Of a stretch of DNA of 32,201 nt, positions 444 through 5,703 are shown in pieces. Source of the stretch: a virus (lineage: Duplodnaviria; Caudoviricetes). The stretch is from the IMG/VR virus record IMGVR_UViG_3300025277_000083, positions 1 through 32,201 of that record; one strand, written 5' to 3'. The notes under the pieces are model-generated. The model saw only the letters and a list, made by a program, of their open reading frames with translations. It was not told the DNA's origin and ran no database searches. The translations under genes and the position numbers were made by a program. Position 1 is the stretch's first letter. Each line of letters begins with the position of its first letter.

Positions 444-1049
444 ATGGCTGGATACGGTCTATCACCAATAAGACATGCAGCTGGAGGTACAGTACGTTTA
501 AATAACTATACAGATATGAATGGTTATAGAATTGCTGCTACTGCACCATCTGCGTACTTCGAAGGCGACCTTGTTACTTATAGCTCAGGCTTACTAGTAA
601 CTGATGTCGGCGCAGCATCTCCGGGTTCTGTTGTCGGTGTTTTCTGGGGAGCAGAATACGAAGATAATTCTACAGGCGATGTAAAATTCGTACGTTCAAT
701 TGCGAACGGAACTGTAGCGAAAGCACAATATAAAGCATATGTTTACGACGATCCGTTTACAATCTTTAAGATTCAATCAGATCAAGCAGGCACAGGCTTA
801 ACTGCAGCGAACTCAACTGGAAAGCTAGTACAAATTGTAGCTTCACCAACAGGTTCGGCAATTACGCATAAATCAGGAATGGTAGCTGATGCTTCTACAG
901 TAGCAACTACTAACACTTTCCCACTATCAGTTTATGGTAGTGCAGAAGCTGACGGAACGTACACTGCAACTGGTACTACTATGGATATAGTAGTGAAAAT
1001 TAACTCACACCAACACCTAAATGGCGCTACTGGCGTTACAGGTATATAA
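444..1049 (+). CDS. Putative capsid decoration/cement protein
   Basis: 201 aa, rich in Gly/Ala/Thr, with F-x-GDLV and VGVFWG motifs. Strong SD (AAGGAGG). Lies immediately upstream of the major capsid gene. Confidence 0.7.
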   Translation: MAGYGLSPIRHAAGGTVRLNNYTDMNGYRIAATAPSAYFEGDLVTYSSGLLVTDVGAASPGSVVGVFWGAEYEDNSTGDVKFVRSIANGTVAKAQYKAYVYDDPFTIFKIQSDQAGTGLTAANSTGKLVQIVASPTGSAITHKSGMVADASTVATTNTFPLSVYGSAEADGTYTATGTTMDIVVKINSHQHLNGATGVTGI

Positions 1050-1069
1050 TATCTAGGAGGATATAGAAT

Positions 1070-1978
1070 ATGGCAATTACTAGAGGTCAAATACTCAAAG
1101 AATTAGTACCTGGTTTGAACGCAATTTTCGGAACAGAATATTCACGTTACGAAAATGAGCACGCAGTACTGTTCGATGAGGAATCATCAAATAGAGCTTT
1201 CGAAGAGGAAGTATTATTCCCAGGTTTTGAGGCAGCTCAAACTAAATTCGAAGGTCAAGCTGTTGCATATGGCAACACTGGTGAGGGGTATGTTTCTCGT
1301 TATACTAACGAAACTGTCGCTATGGCATTCTCAATTACTGAGGAAGCTATGGAAGACAATTTGTATGACAAGTTATCTACTCGATTAACAAAAGCATTAG
1401 CACGTTCAATGGCTTCTGCTAAACAAACTAAAGCGGCAAACGTCTACAACAGAGCTTTCAATAGTTCTTTCAAAGGCGGCGATGGACAAGAGTTAGTATC
1501 TAACTCTCACCCATTAGCTTCAGGATCAACAGGTTCTAACAGACCTTCAACTTATGCTGACCTTTCAGAGGCTTCTCTTGAAACAGCATTAATTGATATC
1601 GCAGGATTTACTGACGATAAAGACATCCCGATTGCAGCTCAAGGTCGTACACTACACATACCAAGACAATTGGTATTCGTAGCGGAAAGACTGCTGGCAT
1701 CTCCGTACAAACCAGGATCATCAGACAATGATGTGAATGCGATTAAGTCTACAGGAATGCTACCAGGTGGCTATCATGTGAATCACAGATTTAGTGATCC
1801 AGATGCTTTCTTTATTAGAACTGATGTTCCTAACGGAATGAAAATGTTCAATAGAGCACCTATCGCAACTTCTATGGAAGGCGACTTTGAAACTGGAAAC
1901 GTAAGATACAAATCTAGAGAAAGATATAGCTTTGGCTTTTCTGACTGGAGAGGCGTATACGGAAACGAAGGCGTATAA
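1070..1978 (+). CDS. Major capsid protein (Mu-like gpT family, HK97 fold)
   Basis: 302 aa with the recognisable family motifs MAITRGQILKELVPGLNAIFG, S-x-RAFEEEV, FSITEEAMEDNLY, GGDG..L....HP and DFETGNVRYKSRERYSFGFSDWRG. SD AGGAGG. Confidence 0.92.
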   Translation: MAITRGQILKELVPGLNAIFGTEYSRYENEHAVLFDEESSNRAFEEEVLFPGFEAAQTKFEGQAVAYGNTGEGYVSRYTNETVAMAFSITEEAMEDNLYDKLSTRLTKALARSMASAKQTKAANVYNRAFNSSFKGGDGQELVSNSHPLASGSTGSNRPSTYADLSEASLETALIDIAGFTDDKDIPIAAQGRTLHIPRQLVFVAERLLASPYKPGSSDNDVNAIKSTGMLPGGYHVNHRFSDPDAFFIRTDVPNGMKMFNRAPIATSMEGDFETGNVRYKSRERYSFGFSDWRGVYGNEGV

Positions 1979-1986
1979 CACACTTT

Positions 1987-2014
1987 GTAGAGGGGGCAGA
2001 AATGTCCCCTTTAC
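1987..2014 (+). terminator. GC-rich stem-loop with GAAA tetraloop after the capsid gene
   Basis: GTAGAGGGGGCA-GAAA-TGTCCCCTTTAC forms a 12-bp stem with 2 G-U pairs. There is no clear U-tract, so it may be a stabilising or pausing hairpin instead. Confidence 0.6.
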
Positions 2015-2016
2015 TA

Positions 2017-2097
2017 CTTGGATTTAACAAATCTTACTTGACTGGCCAAGCAGACGTTATAGAGACAGTAAGAAAATAACTTGGGACTATACTCCCA
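2017..2097 (+). ncRNA. Structured cis-RNA downstream of the capsid gene, probably a Mu-gpT-DE-like motif
   Basis: Crossing complementarities: CTTGG 2017-2021/CCAAG 2046-2050, TCTTACT 2032-2038/AGTAAGA 2067-2073, TATAG 2058-2062/CTATA 2087-2091, and hairpin TGGGA 2082-2086/TCCCA 2093-2097. The position after a gpT-like capsid gene matches my recollection of the Mu-gpT-DE motif. Not verified with a covariance model. Confidence 0.6.
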
Positions 2098-2110
2098 GAA
2101 GGATTAAAGA

Positions 2111-2719
2111 ATGGCAAATTCAACTTTTAGCGGTCCGATTAGATCAGAAGGTGGTTTTGAACAAATCACTAAATCTACAGTAGGTACCGTAACAACTAAC
2201 TTTGATATCGATTCAAGCGGTAATGTATCAGGTTCTGGTACTATGAAAATGACAGGAGCGACAAATATTGTTGCACCTTATGAGTCTTTAACTGCAGCAA
2301 CTAAAGCAGTAACATCAGCAGAAAGTGGAACTACTTTCGTATTTAATAGAGCAGCAGGCGTTGCGGTAACTTTACCAGTAGCAGCAGCAGGCTTAGTTTA
2401 TAAATTCATCGTAGGAACTACTGTTACTTCAAATGCATTAAGCATTCAAGGAGCTACAGCTGTTGATATTTTTTCAGCTTACTCAATGATTACATTGTTT
2501 GATAAAGATAACGACGTAGCACAAGCAAAAATATTCTATGCAGACGGATCAGATGATGATGTGTTCTCTATGAATGGTGGTACAACTGGTGGATTCTTAG
2601 GTAGTGTTATTACATGCACAGGAATCGCAACAGGTGGACAAGGAAGTGCAACAGCAGTATGGCATCTGAATTCAGATAAGCTTGTTGGTGATGGTACTTT
2701 AGCAACACCGTTTGCATAA
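2111..2719 (+). CDS. Putative virion structural protein (minor head protein/fibre)
   Basis: 202 aa, rich in Thr/Gly/Ala, starting MANSTFSGPIRSEGGF and containing a VTLP-x-A-x-x-G motif. Located in the head module. SD GAAGGA. Confidence 0.6.
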   Translation: MANSTFSGPIRSEGGFEQITKSTVGTVTTNFDIDSSGNVSGSGTMKMTGATNIVAPYESLTAATKAVTSAESGTTFVFNRAAGVAVTLPVAAAGLVYKFIVGTTVTSNALSIQGATAVDIFSAYSMITLFDKDNDVAQAKIFYADGSDDDVFSMNGGTTGGFLGSVITCTGIATGGQGSATAVWHLNSDKLVGDGTLATPFA

Positions 2720-2734
2720 TACTAATAATAACTA

Positions 2735-2756
2735 ATGGGGGCCTTCGGGCCCTCAT
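2735..2756 (+). terminator. Stem-loop with cUUCGg tetraloop
   Basis: ATGGGGGCC-TTCG-GGCCCTCAT forms a 9-bp stem in the intergenic gap. The U-tract is weak. Confidence 0.6.
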
Positions 2757-2783
2757 ATTCTTGATTAAGAAGGGAAGAACAAT

Positions 2784-3209
2784 ATGGCAGACACAGTAAC
2801 AGGTCCAACTATATTACAACAAAATGAGAAAAGAGTTACTATTAAAATAGTAATTCAATCAGATGGTACAGGCGGTACTACAGTATTCGGAGATGTATCA
2901 GCAATGGATGCACTTCCAAATGGAACAACTTGCAAAACTTTAAGCGTACAAAGATTATGGTTTGCTTGTGATACAGGTGATGGAGGAGATTCATACGCTC
3001 GTTTAGATTATGAAGATGATGATGGAGATATTCCTATTGTTGGATTAACTGGAACAGGTTATTGGGACTTCAGAGAATTCGGTGGAATTCCTGCAAACCA
3101 ATCCGCAAACACAAACCAAGACGATATTAATATAGTTATACCCGGTACAGCAGATGCAGGTAATATGTATACTGTTGTTATGGAATGTACTAAGACATAC
3201 GTGGAGTAA
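2784..3209 (+). CDS. Hypothetical protein, probably virion-associated
   Basis: 141-aa acidic ORF containing G-x-WDFREFGGI, with a purine-rich SD, in the structural operon. Confidence 0.65.
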   Translation: MADTVTGPTILQQNEKRVTIKIVIQSDGTGGTTVFGDVSAMDALPNGTTCKTLSVQRLWFACDTGDGGDSYARLDYEDDDGDIPIVGLTGTGYWDFREFGGIPANQSANTNQDDINIVIPGTADAGNMYTVVMECTKTYVE

Positions 3210-3212
3210 TAA

Positions 3213-3413
3213 ATGAGCGAGCAAACTAACAAAGAAGCAATTATAGAAATTAAAGGCGACCTCAAATTACTTAACCAAAAAATAGATTTAATAAAGGACA
3301 ATCATTTGGCCCACATGGCTCAAGATATTGATAAACTTTCTAAATTTATCTGGGTAATTGGCGGGACTGTATTTGCACAAATGTGTTATTTGATTGTTCG
3401 TACCTTAATATAG
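3213..3413 (+). CDS. Small coiled-coil protein with a C-terminal transmembrane segment
   Basis: 66 aa with a heptad-like N-terminus (IKGDLKLLNQKIDLIKDNHL) and a hydrophobic tail (FIWVIGGTVFAQMCYLIV). The architecture is XhlA/holin-like, which is an inference. Confidence 0.6.
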   Translation: MSEQTNKEAIIEIKGDLKLLNQKIDLIKDNHLAHMAQDIDKLSKFIWVIGGTVFAQMCYLIVRTLI

Positions 3414-3425
3414 GAAGGACAAAAT

Positions 3426-4175
3426 ATGGCCACATCAGGCACACAAACATTCAATCTTTCGATTGATGATGTAATACAAGAAGCTTATGAAAGAATTGGC
3501 GTAAGTTCTAAGGGCGGCTATGATTTAATTACAGCTAGGCGTTCTCTTAACTTATTGATGTTGGAATGGGTTAATGATGGTGTAAATTTATTTACTCTTG
3601 ATTTAATAGAACACACCATGACCAAAGATCAAGGATACATTACATTTAGTTCTAACACATACTCAGATGTATTAGATGCAGTTATAACAGATACTAATGC
3701 TGATCCAGATTCTGATCAAGAAATAGAACGTATTAGTCTTACTGATTACTTACAACTTCCAACTAAAACAACTTCAGGCAAGCCATCACAATATGCTGTT
3801 GAGCGTAATGCTCAATATGATAGCAGTGGTGTAGCTACACACAAAGTTTATTTGTGGCCTGTACCTGATCAAACTTACTACAAATTAAAAGCATGGATGA
3901 TTAAATATCCAGATGATGTTGCATGGACTAGCACAGCTGGTGGACAAGTAACAGTTCCGTATATTGATTACAGACAAAACGTTCAAATACCAAAACGTAT
4001 GCTACCTCCTATGATTAGTGGATTAACTGTTAAGTTAGCACATAAACATCCTGGAACTGTAGATGTAAATAGAAGAGCAGAACTTACTGCAATTTATAAA
4101 GACGAATGGGAAAAGGCTAGAGAAGAAGACAGAGAACGTGTAAGTTTCTACGTACAACCGGCGGTATATTACTAA
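3426..4175 (+). CDS. Head-tail adaptor / tail tubular protein A-like
   Basis: 249 aa with MATSGT-x-TFNL, ARRSLNLL...W-x-N-x-GVNL and GKPSQYAV...LWPVPD motifs typical of podovirus-like adaptor proteins. SD GGAAGGA. Confidence 0.7.
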   Translation: MATSGTQTFNLSIDDVIQEAYERIGVSSKGGYDLITARRSLNLLMLEWVNDGVNLFTLDLIEHTMTKDQGYITFSSNTYSDVLDAVITDTNADPDSDQEIERISLTDYLQLPTKTTSGKPSQYAVERNAQYDSSGVATHKVYLWPVPDQTYYKLKAWMIKYPDDVAWTSTAGGQVTVPYIDYRQNVQIPKRMLPPMISGLTVKLAHKHPGTVDVNRRAELTAIYKDEWEKAREEDRERVSFYVQPAVYY

Positions 4176-5022: not shown

Positions 5023-5703
5023 ATGGCAAGATACACTAAAGGAAAACATGCAGTAGCAATTGATGACCGTTCTGGTTTTAAGGTAAAACATAAAGACCTT
5101 AGAAGAGAATGGACTGGTATGATGGTTCACAAAAGTGATTGGGAATCTAAACAAGCACAACTTGATCCTTCTAAGTATTTTAAAAATACTGGAAGTAACG
5201 TAATAGAAAACCCAAGACCAGACAATTCAAATGATTCAGTTGTTGTAAGACTTGGACCTTTAAATCAATCATACTCTGGAACAATGCAAGCCTATCATGG
5301 TACACTTCATACAGGTGGTCTTGATCTTGTTGAAGTTCCACCAGGACAAGAAGCAGGAACAGCTCAAGGTTCTCCTACATTAAACTTCATTGAATTCCCT
5401 ACTGGAATAGCAGCTGGTACTGGTTTAGGTACATTGATACAAAATCTTGCAGATCAACCATCTGGTATAGCTGCAGGAACAGCGCAAGGTGGCTCTGGAT
5501 TATTCTTTGGATCAACAGAAATACCACCAGGCATTGCAGCAGGTACAGCTCTTGGAACAGTTATTGTTAATGCAAATGCATTACCTACTGGAATAGCAGC
5601 TGGTTCAGCTCAAGGTTCAGTAACTCCAGTAGTTAGTGGATGGTCTCAAGGTACTTATGGACAAGGCGCTTGGGGATACGGACAACAGGGAGGAGCATTA
5701 TAA
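5023..5703 (+). CDS. Putative virion protein with five ~20-aa repeats and a Trp/Gly C-terminal motif
   Basis: 226 aa. N-terminal DDRSGF...EW-x-G-x-x-V...WE-x-K motif, five P-x-G-x-x-AG-[TS]-x-x-G repeats, and a C-terminal GWSQGTYGQGAWG. Confidence 0.7.
   Translation: MARYTKGKHAVAIDDRSGFKVKHKDLRREWTGMMVHKSDWESKQAQLDPSKYFKNTGSNVIENPRPDNSNDSVVVRLGPLNQSYSGTMQAYHGTLHTGGLDLVEVPPGQEAGTAQGSPTLNFIEFPTGIAAGTGLGTLIQNLADQPSGIAAGTAQGGSGLFFGSTEIPPGIAAGTALGTVIVNANALPTGIAAGSAQGSVTPVVSGWSQGTYGQGAWGYGQQGGAL

Follow-up and report, generated by a model that had tools for sequence, protein, structure and literature searches.

The closest described relative of the RNA considered here is the orphan motif Mu-gpT-DE, which was reportedly first described by Weinberg et al. 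in 2017. Rfam models it as RF03012, a family of 53 positions typed 'sRNA' with a gathering threshold of 49 bits, in which an outer 4-base-pair (bp) stem (CCUG/CAGG) encloses an inner hairpin and the strand ACAcUAGCCAcGA, and is followed by AGGAG and AUG. The part of the CaCoFold paper that deals with Mu-gpT-DE places it among the families with additional covarying pairs, and our literature search turned up no functional study of the motif. A 2023 survey of viral RNAs reported 8495 unnamed 'DNAVirus_X' candidates from IMG/VR (PMC10690425), and its supplementary file 3 sets aside six raw candidates overlapping RF03012 as known; the portions of that survey considered here draw on the same collection and the same type of evidence, intergenic covariation, as our analysis. 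Here we examine a 32,201-nucleotide (nt) fragment of a marine phage (IMG/VR record IMGVR_UViG_3300025277_000083, positions 1 to 32,201; the whole stretch is hereafter called the window), in which the 132-nt gap (1979-2110) between the major capsid gene and the next open reading frame (ORF; 2111-2719) holds an RNA element of about 80 nt (2017-2098, + strand) with four helices, two of them pseudoknots. This fold is real and has been kept by compensating mutations across many ocean-phage sequences.

An earlier note on this DNA, made from the letters alone, had pointed to three crossing complementarities in the gap, and all three are present exactly at the coordinates it gave. P1 pairs 2017-2021 (CTTGG) with 2046-2050 (CCAAG), the outer stem P2 pairs 2032-2038 (TCTTACT) with 2067-2073 (AGTAAGA), and P3 pairs 2058-2062 (TATAG) with 2087-2091 (CTATA), such that P1 crosses P2 and P2 crosses P3; all features given here are read on the + strand. 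Within P2, U2039 is bulged and G2040 is able to pair with C2066. To these helices our analysis adds a short one, S (2042-2044/2051-2053), of 3 bp, the 6-nt loop of which pairs with the upstream strand to form P1, the first pseudoknot. The core GACUGGCCAAGCAGAC (2040-2055) comprises a first GAC triplet (GAC1, 2040-2042), helix S, the 3' strand of P1 and a second triplet (GAC2, 2053-2055), and leads into the junction strand Y (GUUAUAG) followed by AGAC (2056-2066), where Y holds the 5' strand of P3 and 2064-2066 form the third triplet (GAC3). P2 closes the junction that these three triplets mark, while the second pseudoknot, P3, joins Y to the loop of a further hairpin, P4 (2081-2086/2093-2098), whose loop CUAUAC holds the 3' strand of P3. 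The core reading in the note, GACTGGCCAAGCAGAC...GAGAC, was confirmed from the sequence, and so was its hairpin with a P3 strand in the loop just before the Shine-Dalgarno (SD) sequence, although this hairpin spans 2081-2098 rather than 2082-2097. P4 is found in minimum-free-energy folds and ends 1 nt upstream of the SD sequence AAGGA (2099-2103), which is separated by a 7-nt spacer from the ATG at 2111-2113; the element as a whole ends 12 nt upstream of this start codon. A short hairpin around the 3' strand of P3 also occurs in relatives, for example as GUG...CAC, or as GCG...CGC in locus L180, and CUAUA stays in the loop of P4 in the three loci, L002-L004, that form a clade with the window.

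Relatives were collected in two ways. A search of IMG/VR with the capsid protein gave 80 loci at 58-100% identity, and in most of them the capsid gene is followed by 83-200 nt of intergenic sequence with a GC-rich hairpin and then a second, conserved element. A pattern scan of the same collection with the core of the element returned 120 stretches, with about 4400 estimated in the collection as a whole, and removal of duplicates and truncated flanks left 118 usable instances. We divided these into 98 relatives, in which the product of the next gene begins M..TFxGP as it does in the window, and 20 controls, which are out-of-context matches to the pattern without such a product. The knotted form also occurs in the cultured SAR11 phage HTVC023P (L209, 4960-5075), where it scores 37.7 bits with our own covariance model R1 and precedes gp41, a hypothetical protein; a literature search turned up no pseudoknot described for this phage.

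The covariation of crossing helices that the note had asked of the post-capsid regions of relatives was found for P1, P2 and P3, and it supports the compact multi-pseudoknot RNA that the note envisaged. Anchored only by the invariant GAC triplets, P2 reaches at least 6 consecutive pairs in 97 of the 98 relatives and in none of the 20 controls, which have at most 3 pairs, and all 8 of its variable pairs changed on both sides in an alignment made with MAFFT. An exact 5-nt complement of the P1 strand lies 19-27 nt upstream in 95/98 relatives compared to 1/20 controls, and each of the five P1 types observed (CCUAG, CCCAG, CCCGA, CCCGG and CCAAG) occurs solely with its own complement. Among the 98 relatives the middle pair of helix S reads U-A 79 times and A-U 19 times and is never mismatched, whereas in the controls it is mismatched in 13 of 20 and complementary in 7. 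P3 was assessed in the 56 relatives (class A) in which the junction strand does not end in CC[A/G]. In 49 of them this strand can form a Watson-Crick helix of 6 bp or more with sequence ahead of the start codon, and 21 distinct duplex types occur; such helices arose in 21 of 1120 trials when Y was shuffled and in 18 of 1120 when a foreign Y took its place.

Alignments gave the same picture. In a MAFFT alignment of 22 sequences, 98.1% of the cells of P1, P2 and S are paired compared to 26-41% with slid partners, 12 of the 17 pairs change on both sides, and the covariation score was reached by none of 500 shuffles. A second alignment (A4), which includes the window and was fitted to our own covariance model built from nine sequences, has 92.8% of P3 cells paired and compensation in all six P3 pairs, although A4 is structure-biased and the 3' strand of P3 is misregistered in several distant subclasses (among them class b rows and partly the window clade); we therefore relied on the anchored script tests over the A4 counts. 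P1 cells are 100% paired in both the MAFFT and the model-fitted alignment. A larger MAFFT alignment of 50 sequences (A1), in which the 5' strand of P1 is misregistered in many rows, was left out of the counting. Cells of P2 contain 40 G.U pairs and a single A.C, an excess which indicates that the folded strand is the sense RNA, that is, the mRNA. The core at 2040-2055 has invariant columns, and about 14 junction bases in all are invariant across these phages, despite capsids that are only about 58-60% identical and recorded hosts that range from SAR11 to Roseobacter, which points to a conserved tertiary core or a conserved partner.

Taken by itself, the window makes a modest case, and the argument thus rests on the relatives: three crossing Watson-Crick helices, each of at least 5 bp and one of at least 7 bp, appeared 7 times when 2017-2104 was dinucleotide-shuffled 3000 times. 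Three other pairings that the window would allow (2056-2060/2076-2080, 2046-2050/2080-2084 and a small hairpin 2021-2025/2029-2033) were rejected, as they are not conserved in L002-L004. In the class a leaders of L115, L155, L164, L205 and similar loci, the 5' strand of P1 can form a local hairpin with the linker after it (e.g. CCGGG...CCCGG), which may be an alternative state. A local hairpin competing with P1 was considered as a general switch and set aside, as it is confined to this one subclass and absent from the other subclasses and the window.

The note had also named Mu-gpT-DE, and the connection holds in substance. RF03012 matches the same genomic position in other capsid relatives (L018 at 74.5 bits, L047 at 65.6, L015 at 50.9 and the cultured Roseobacter phage CRP-902 at 72.3; L049, at 46.3, falls just under the gathering score), and the three-GAC junction is common to both. 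The window itself returned no match to any Rfam covariance model at the gathering threshold, and a relaxed search of 1900-2200 against Rfam 15 with expectation values (E) up to 10 gave one chance-level match to a long non-coding RNA (E 5.4) and none to RF03012. Likewise, RF03012 was unmatched at the knotted or variant loci L004, L042, L062, L048, L007, L012, L055, L046 and L051. The window form is therefore a variant rather than a member of RF03012 as modelled. Applying pattern rules to the 76 capsid relatives with enough downstream sequence, we assigned 34 to the Rfam form and 20 to the knotted form, while 22 fitted neither, part of which carry further variants.

Comparison of the two forms reveals a shared plan. 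Both lie after a Mu gpT-like capsid gene and just before the start of the next gene, and both combine an outer stem with an inner hairpin and a GAC triplet at three places. In each, the last pair of the outer stem joins the G of GAC1 to the C of GAC3 and is followed by an unpaired A, the inner hairpin begins with the C of GAC1 and the G of GAC2, and the junction strand, located between GAC2 and GAC3, pairs with sequence downstream. They differ in how this plan is elaborated. In RF03012, S forms an ordinary hairpin, P2 takes its 3' strand from the SD region (the CAGG of ACAGGAG), and UAGCCA faces AUG-GCU. In the window, by contrast, the inner hairpin has 3 bp and its loop is captured by the upstream P1 strand, which contributes a further pseudoknot and lengthens the 5' side by about 25 nt; P2 has its 3' strand (AGUAAGA) 26 nt upstream of the SD sequence, and Y pairs with 2087-2091 rather than with the AUG. 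The Y strand of the Rfam form, UAGCCA, is complementary to the UGGCUA of AUG-GCU-A, and it changes with the second codon, reading CCC in all 5 cases that have GGN there and GCC in all 20 that have GCN. This matched switch indicates that the Rfam form is also pseudoknotted, onto the start codon.

Intermediate and divergent forms exist as well. Hybrids make up 42 of the 98 relatives; they combine the P1 knot with the Y pairing of the Rfam form, to the UGGC of the AUG. L005 (2020-2067), whose capsid is 79% identical to that of the window, has an unknotted three-way junction with three AGAC motifs, in which a hairpin loop exposes the SD sequence and the closing stem contains the AUG; reduced versions of this junction occur in L006, L010 and L011, and the capsids of the L005-type relatives are 75-79% identical to that of the window. 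A longer third variant with extra hairpins is seen in L051, L052, L054, L057 and L065, where R1 gives L051 40.9 bits and the others were recognised by eye. L046 has two diverged knotted copies (3519-3596 and 5191-5271), 1.7 kilobases (kb) apart, and both precede genes without the usual M..TFxGP start. We read all of these forms as one diversified leader family built on a single three-GAC junction, with the window form as a doubly pseudoknotted variant of the orphan motif. The survey text in PMC10690425, in the portion considered, gives the knotted form no name, structure or function, and this form may be among the unnamed candidates listed there.

What is constant in every form is that some helix contacts the SD sequence or the AUG, while the helix that does so varies. 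In the Rfam form the SD sequence is inside the outer stem and the AUG inside the pseudoknot; in the hybrids the AUG is inside the pseudoknot and the SD sequence is in or beside a small hairpin; and in the knotted class A leaders the 3' strand of P3, which ends 6-17 nt upstream of the AUG, or P4 overlaps or abuts the SD sequence. As the 3' edge of the fold is always at the SD sequence or the AUG, we infer control of translation initiation, and we give about an even chance to the element being a cis-acting operator that tunes initiation on the next gene, a predicted capsid-spike gene. Folding would set the ease with which the 30S subunit loads, and this loading would in turn set the amount of spike relative to capsid protein; the effect would probably be to limit initiation, although either repression or enhancement could result. 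One of three functions suggested in the earlier note, a protein-sensing switch that sets the ratio of capsid to minor protein, is viable and comes closest to this operator, with the protein ligand being putative.

Several observations weigh against a translational operator. The nested fold energy of 2015-2113 is no better than that of shuffled sequences (z -0.51, with 59 of 200 folding as well). In the window both the SD sequence and the AUG are unpaired in the model and the fold merely abuts the SD sequence, so that an enhancer, a standby site or a stabiliser fits as well as repression. The two copies in L046 stand before other genes, and the element is thus not tied to one gene product. The RNA-library contigs considered below carry no information on 5' or 3' ends and may include carried-over DNA; since contigs cannot rank genes, their depth on the two sides of the post-capsid hairpin and stretches lacking cover were given no weight. 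Finally, 36 of the 95 type II relatives have a TATAAT-like hexamer (at least 5 of 6 positions matched) upstream of P1, and for 27 of them the distance from its end to P1 is 6-10 nt; a -10-like box at this place would put the fold at the extreme 5' end of a transcript, which is the typical position of an mRNA stabiliser.

The last of these observations is the starting point for a different reading, in which the element stabilises the 5' end of the downstream mRNA, or insulates it, against 5'-end-dependent decay and affects translation only indirectly. The order of features in HTVC023P, where a terminator hairpin is followed by TGTATAAT, then 7 nt and then P1, is as expected for such an arrangement. 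In the window, L002-L004 and about a dozen others, however, the hairpin and U-run abut P1 and leave no room for a promoter. Moreover, a stabiliser needs no pairing to the AUG or SD sequence, which nevertheless occurs in the Rfam form, in the hybrids and in L005, and the invariant junction bases are left unexplained. On balance, we consider a 5' stabiliser unlikely.

The same invariant bases, about 14 unpaired or junction positions kept across diverged phages whose hosts extend from SAR11 to Roseobacter, would be accounted for if the junction acted in the manner of a riboswitch, opening or closing the ribosome-binding site on binding an ion or small molecule that many hosts share. Small pseudoknot aptamers are alike in size, in double-pseudoknot shape and in abutting the SD sequence. 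Against this, the window clade has no conserved off-state pairing (the candidates are lost in L002-L004), the gene context suggests no ligand, and the window matches no Rfam riboswitch family. We regard a riboswitch-like sensor as quite improbable.

The upstream neighbour of the element (1070-1978, + strand, 302 amino acids) is the major capsid gene; its product matches the Pfam families PF25209 (Phage_capsid_4, 38.1 bits, cut-off 27) and, weakly, PF10124 (Mu-like_gpT, 23.6 bits, cut-off 20.1), belongs to PHROG 371 (major head protein) and had no match in a sequence search of the PDB. Its nearest named kin, at 58-60% identity, are the capsids of phage DSL-LC04 and of the Pelagibacter phages HTVC023P and HTVC027P. 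The downstream gene (2111-2719, + strand) encodes 202 amino acids with no sequence match in Pfam, PHROG or the PDB and only unnamed viral clusters in the protein atlas. Its AlphaFold model has a predicted local distance difference test (pLDDT) score of 72.7, and the PDB entry closest in fold is the Pa223 capsid spike, from a Pseudomonas phage (E 2.2e-4, though TMq is only 0.38), followed by T4 gp9 and gp10, the N-terminal domain of the CBA120 tailspike, and fibre-like or receptor-binding-like viral models; its positional counterpart in DSL-LC04 carries the annotation 'cement protein'. Modelled in three copies, the protein gave a homotrimer score of 0.84 against 0.00 for the best control, with at least 83% of contacts agreeing between runs and a partner pLDDT of at least 86. 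In calibration the mark was reached by 20 of the 30 proteins whose solved structure pairs one chain with itself and by 1 of the 23 solved as single chains, figures that apply only roughly to a run with our own alignment and three copies. As a modelling result, the score shows likeness to trimeric fibres rather than binding, and we predict from these models a trimeric spike or cement-like protein of the capsid surface.

The downstream proteins of the window and of L089-L208 have about 16 N-terminal residues in common (MAxTTFSGPVxSxNGF), after which they differ, with lengths of 69-315 amino acids. Judged by sequence, this is the pattern of an anchor that would carry a fast-evolving displayed domain, and the conserved N-termini lie within the trimer interface of the three-copy model. 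These features allow a more specific version of the operator, albeit one that we rate as a long shot: the three-GAC junction may be an RNA decoy of the docking site for the spike on the capsid, bound by free spike trimers. With their N-terminal anchors, which are conserved and intertwined, the trimers would grip the threefold-like junction and so turn off their own translation. If this were true, spike synthesis would be matched to the capsids still without spikes, an assembly-coupled feedback as in ribosomal proteins, operating in some of the most abundant phages of the ocean.

The region between the capsid stop codon and the element contains a further structure that the earlier note did not mention, a GC-rich hairpin of 12 bp with a GAAA loop (1987-1998/2003-2014) and a weak U-run directly 3' of the capsid stop. 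Most of the folding energy of the gap comes from this hairpin, the fold of 1979-2113 reaching -34.9 kcal/mol (z -3.34, with 0 of 200 shuffles as good). A terminator scan, whose rule calls for a stronger U-run, did not list it despite the strong stem; relatives have a GC-rich hairpin with a clear U-run at the equivalent place. The hairpin at 1987-2014 may be terminator-like or protect a 3' end. A second terminator-like hairpin (2735-2756; 9 pairs with a UUCG-type loop) lies between the spike-like gene and the ORF at 2784-3209, and the spike-like gene is thus bracketed by two hairpins. In L046, the stretch right after the capsid stop (3424-3459) matches the abiF RNA of Rfam (RF03085, 44.6 bits, gathering score 37).

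Transcription of the region was looked for in 12 metatranscriptome runs that contained at least half of the sampled words of 900-3300, all as contigs and subject to the caveat given above. Three studies have contigs that link the capsid gene with the element or cross it (X1 1865-2976, X9 1270-2115 and X14 900-2045), and two runs of unrecorded kind cross both the hairpin and the element (X15 1405-3300; X17 1883-2079 and 2050-2212). Capsid contigs of three other RNA runs end at 1980, 1995 and 1994. Together these are a weak hint of partial 3'-end formation at 1987-2014 with read-through.

Contigs that link the capsid gene with the element, and the Rfam name 'downstream element' with the position downstream of the capsid gene that it implies, are what would be expected of a 3' element of the capsid mRNA that blocks 3' exonucleases, which was another suggestion of the note. 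This proposal fits the locus poorly, and we consider it very improbable: the 12-bp hairpin intervenes upstream of the element and is already a 3' block, -10-like boxes lie between hairpin and element in many relatives, the 3' helices reach the next ribosome-binding site and the position of the element follows the start codon of the next gene, and the second copy in L046 is 1.7 kb from the capsid gene and before another gene. The remaining suggestion, a self-cleaving ribozyme that separates the capsid and downstream messages, is barely credible, in spite of the compact, doubly knotted fold, its invariant junction bases and its place between two genes that differ in expression, as no Rfam ribozyme family is matched in the window (nor over 1900-2200 with E relaxed to 10), contigs X1 and X9 pass uninterrupted through the element, and a topology like that of the hepatitis delta virus ribozyme was rejected with its P3 and P4 hairpins absent and no model match.

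Viewed as a whole, these observations make Mu-gpT-DE one face of a larger leader family with plain, singly hybrid, doubly knotted and unknotted three-way forms, and the wiring to the ribosome-binding site in every form gives a motif of 'function unknown' a hypothesis that can be tested, namely translational control. Although the Rfam model misses the doubly knotted form, about 4400 IMG/VR stretches are estimated to carry its core, and 98 of the 118 instances examined were genuine. Its presence in the cultured SAR11 phage HTVC023P makes experiments possible, and a four-helix double pseudoknot of about 80 nt with about 14 invariant bases is an attractive target for structure determination.

Two leaders offer analogies for the proposed operator. 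In the leader of the E. coli alpha operon, a pseudoknot serves as the operator bound by ribosomal protein S4. The leader of T4 gene 32 contains an autoregulatory pseudoknot at the ribosome-binding site, as cited in the part of PMC10690425 that concerns it. While neither leader is related to the element in sequence or family and the analogy is one of mechanism only, both resemble it in being a pseudoknotted leader at or next to the initiation region, and in both, as predicted for the element, the product under control is a structural protein that must be made in defined amounts.

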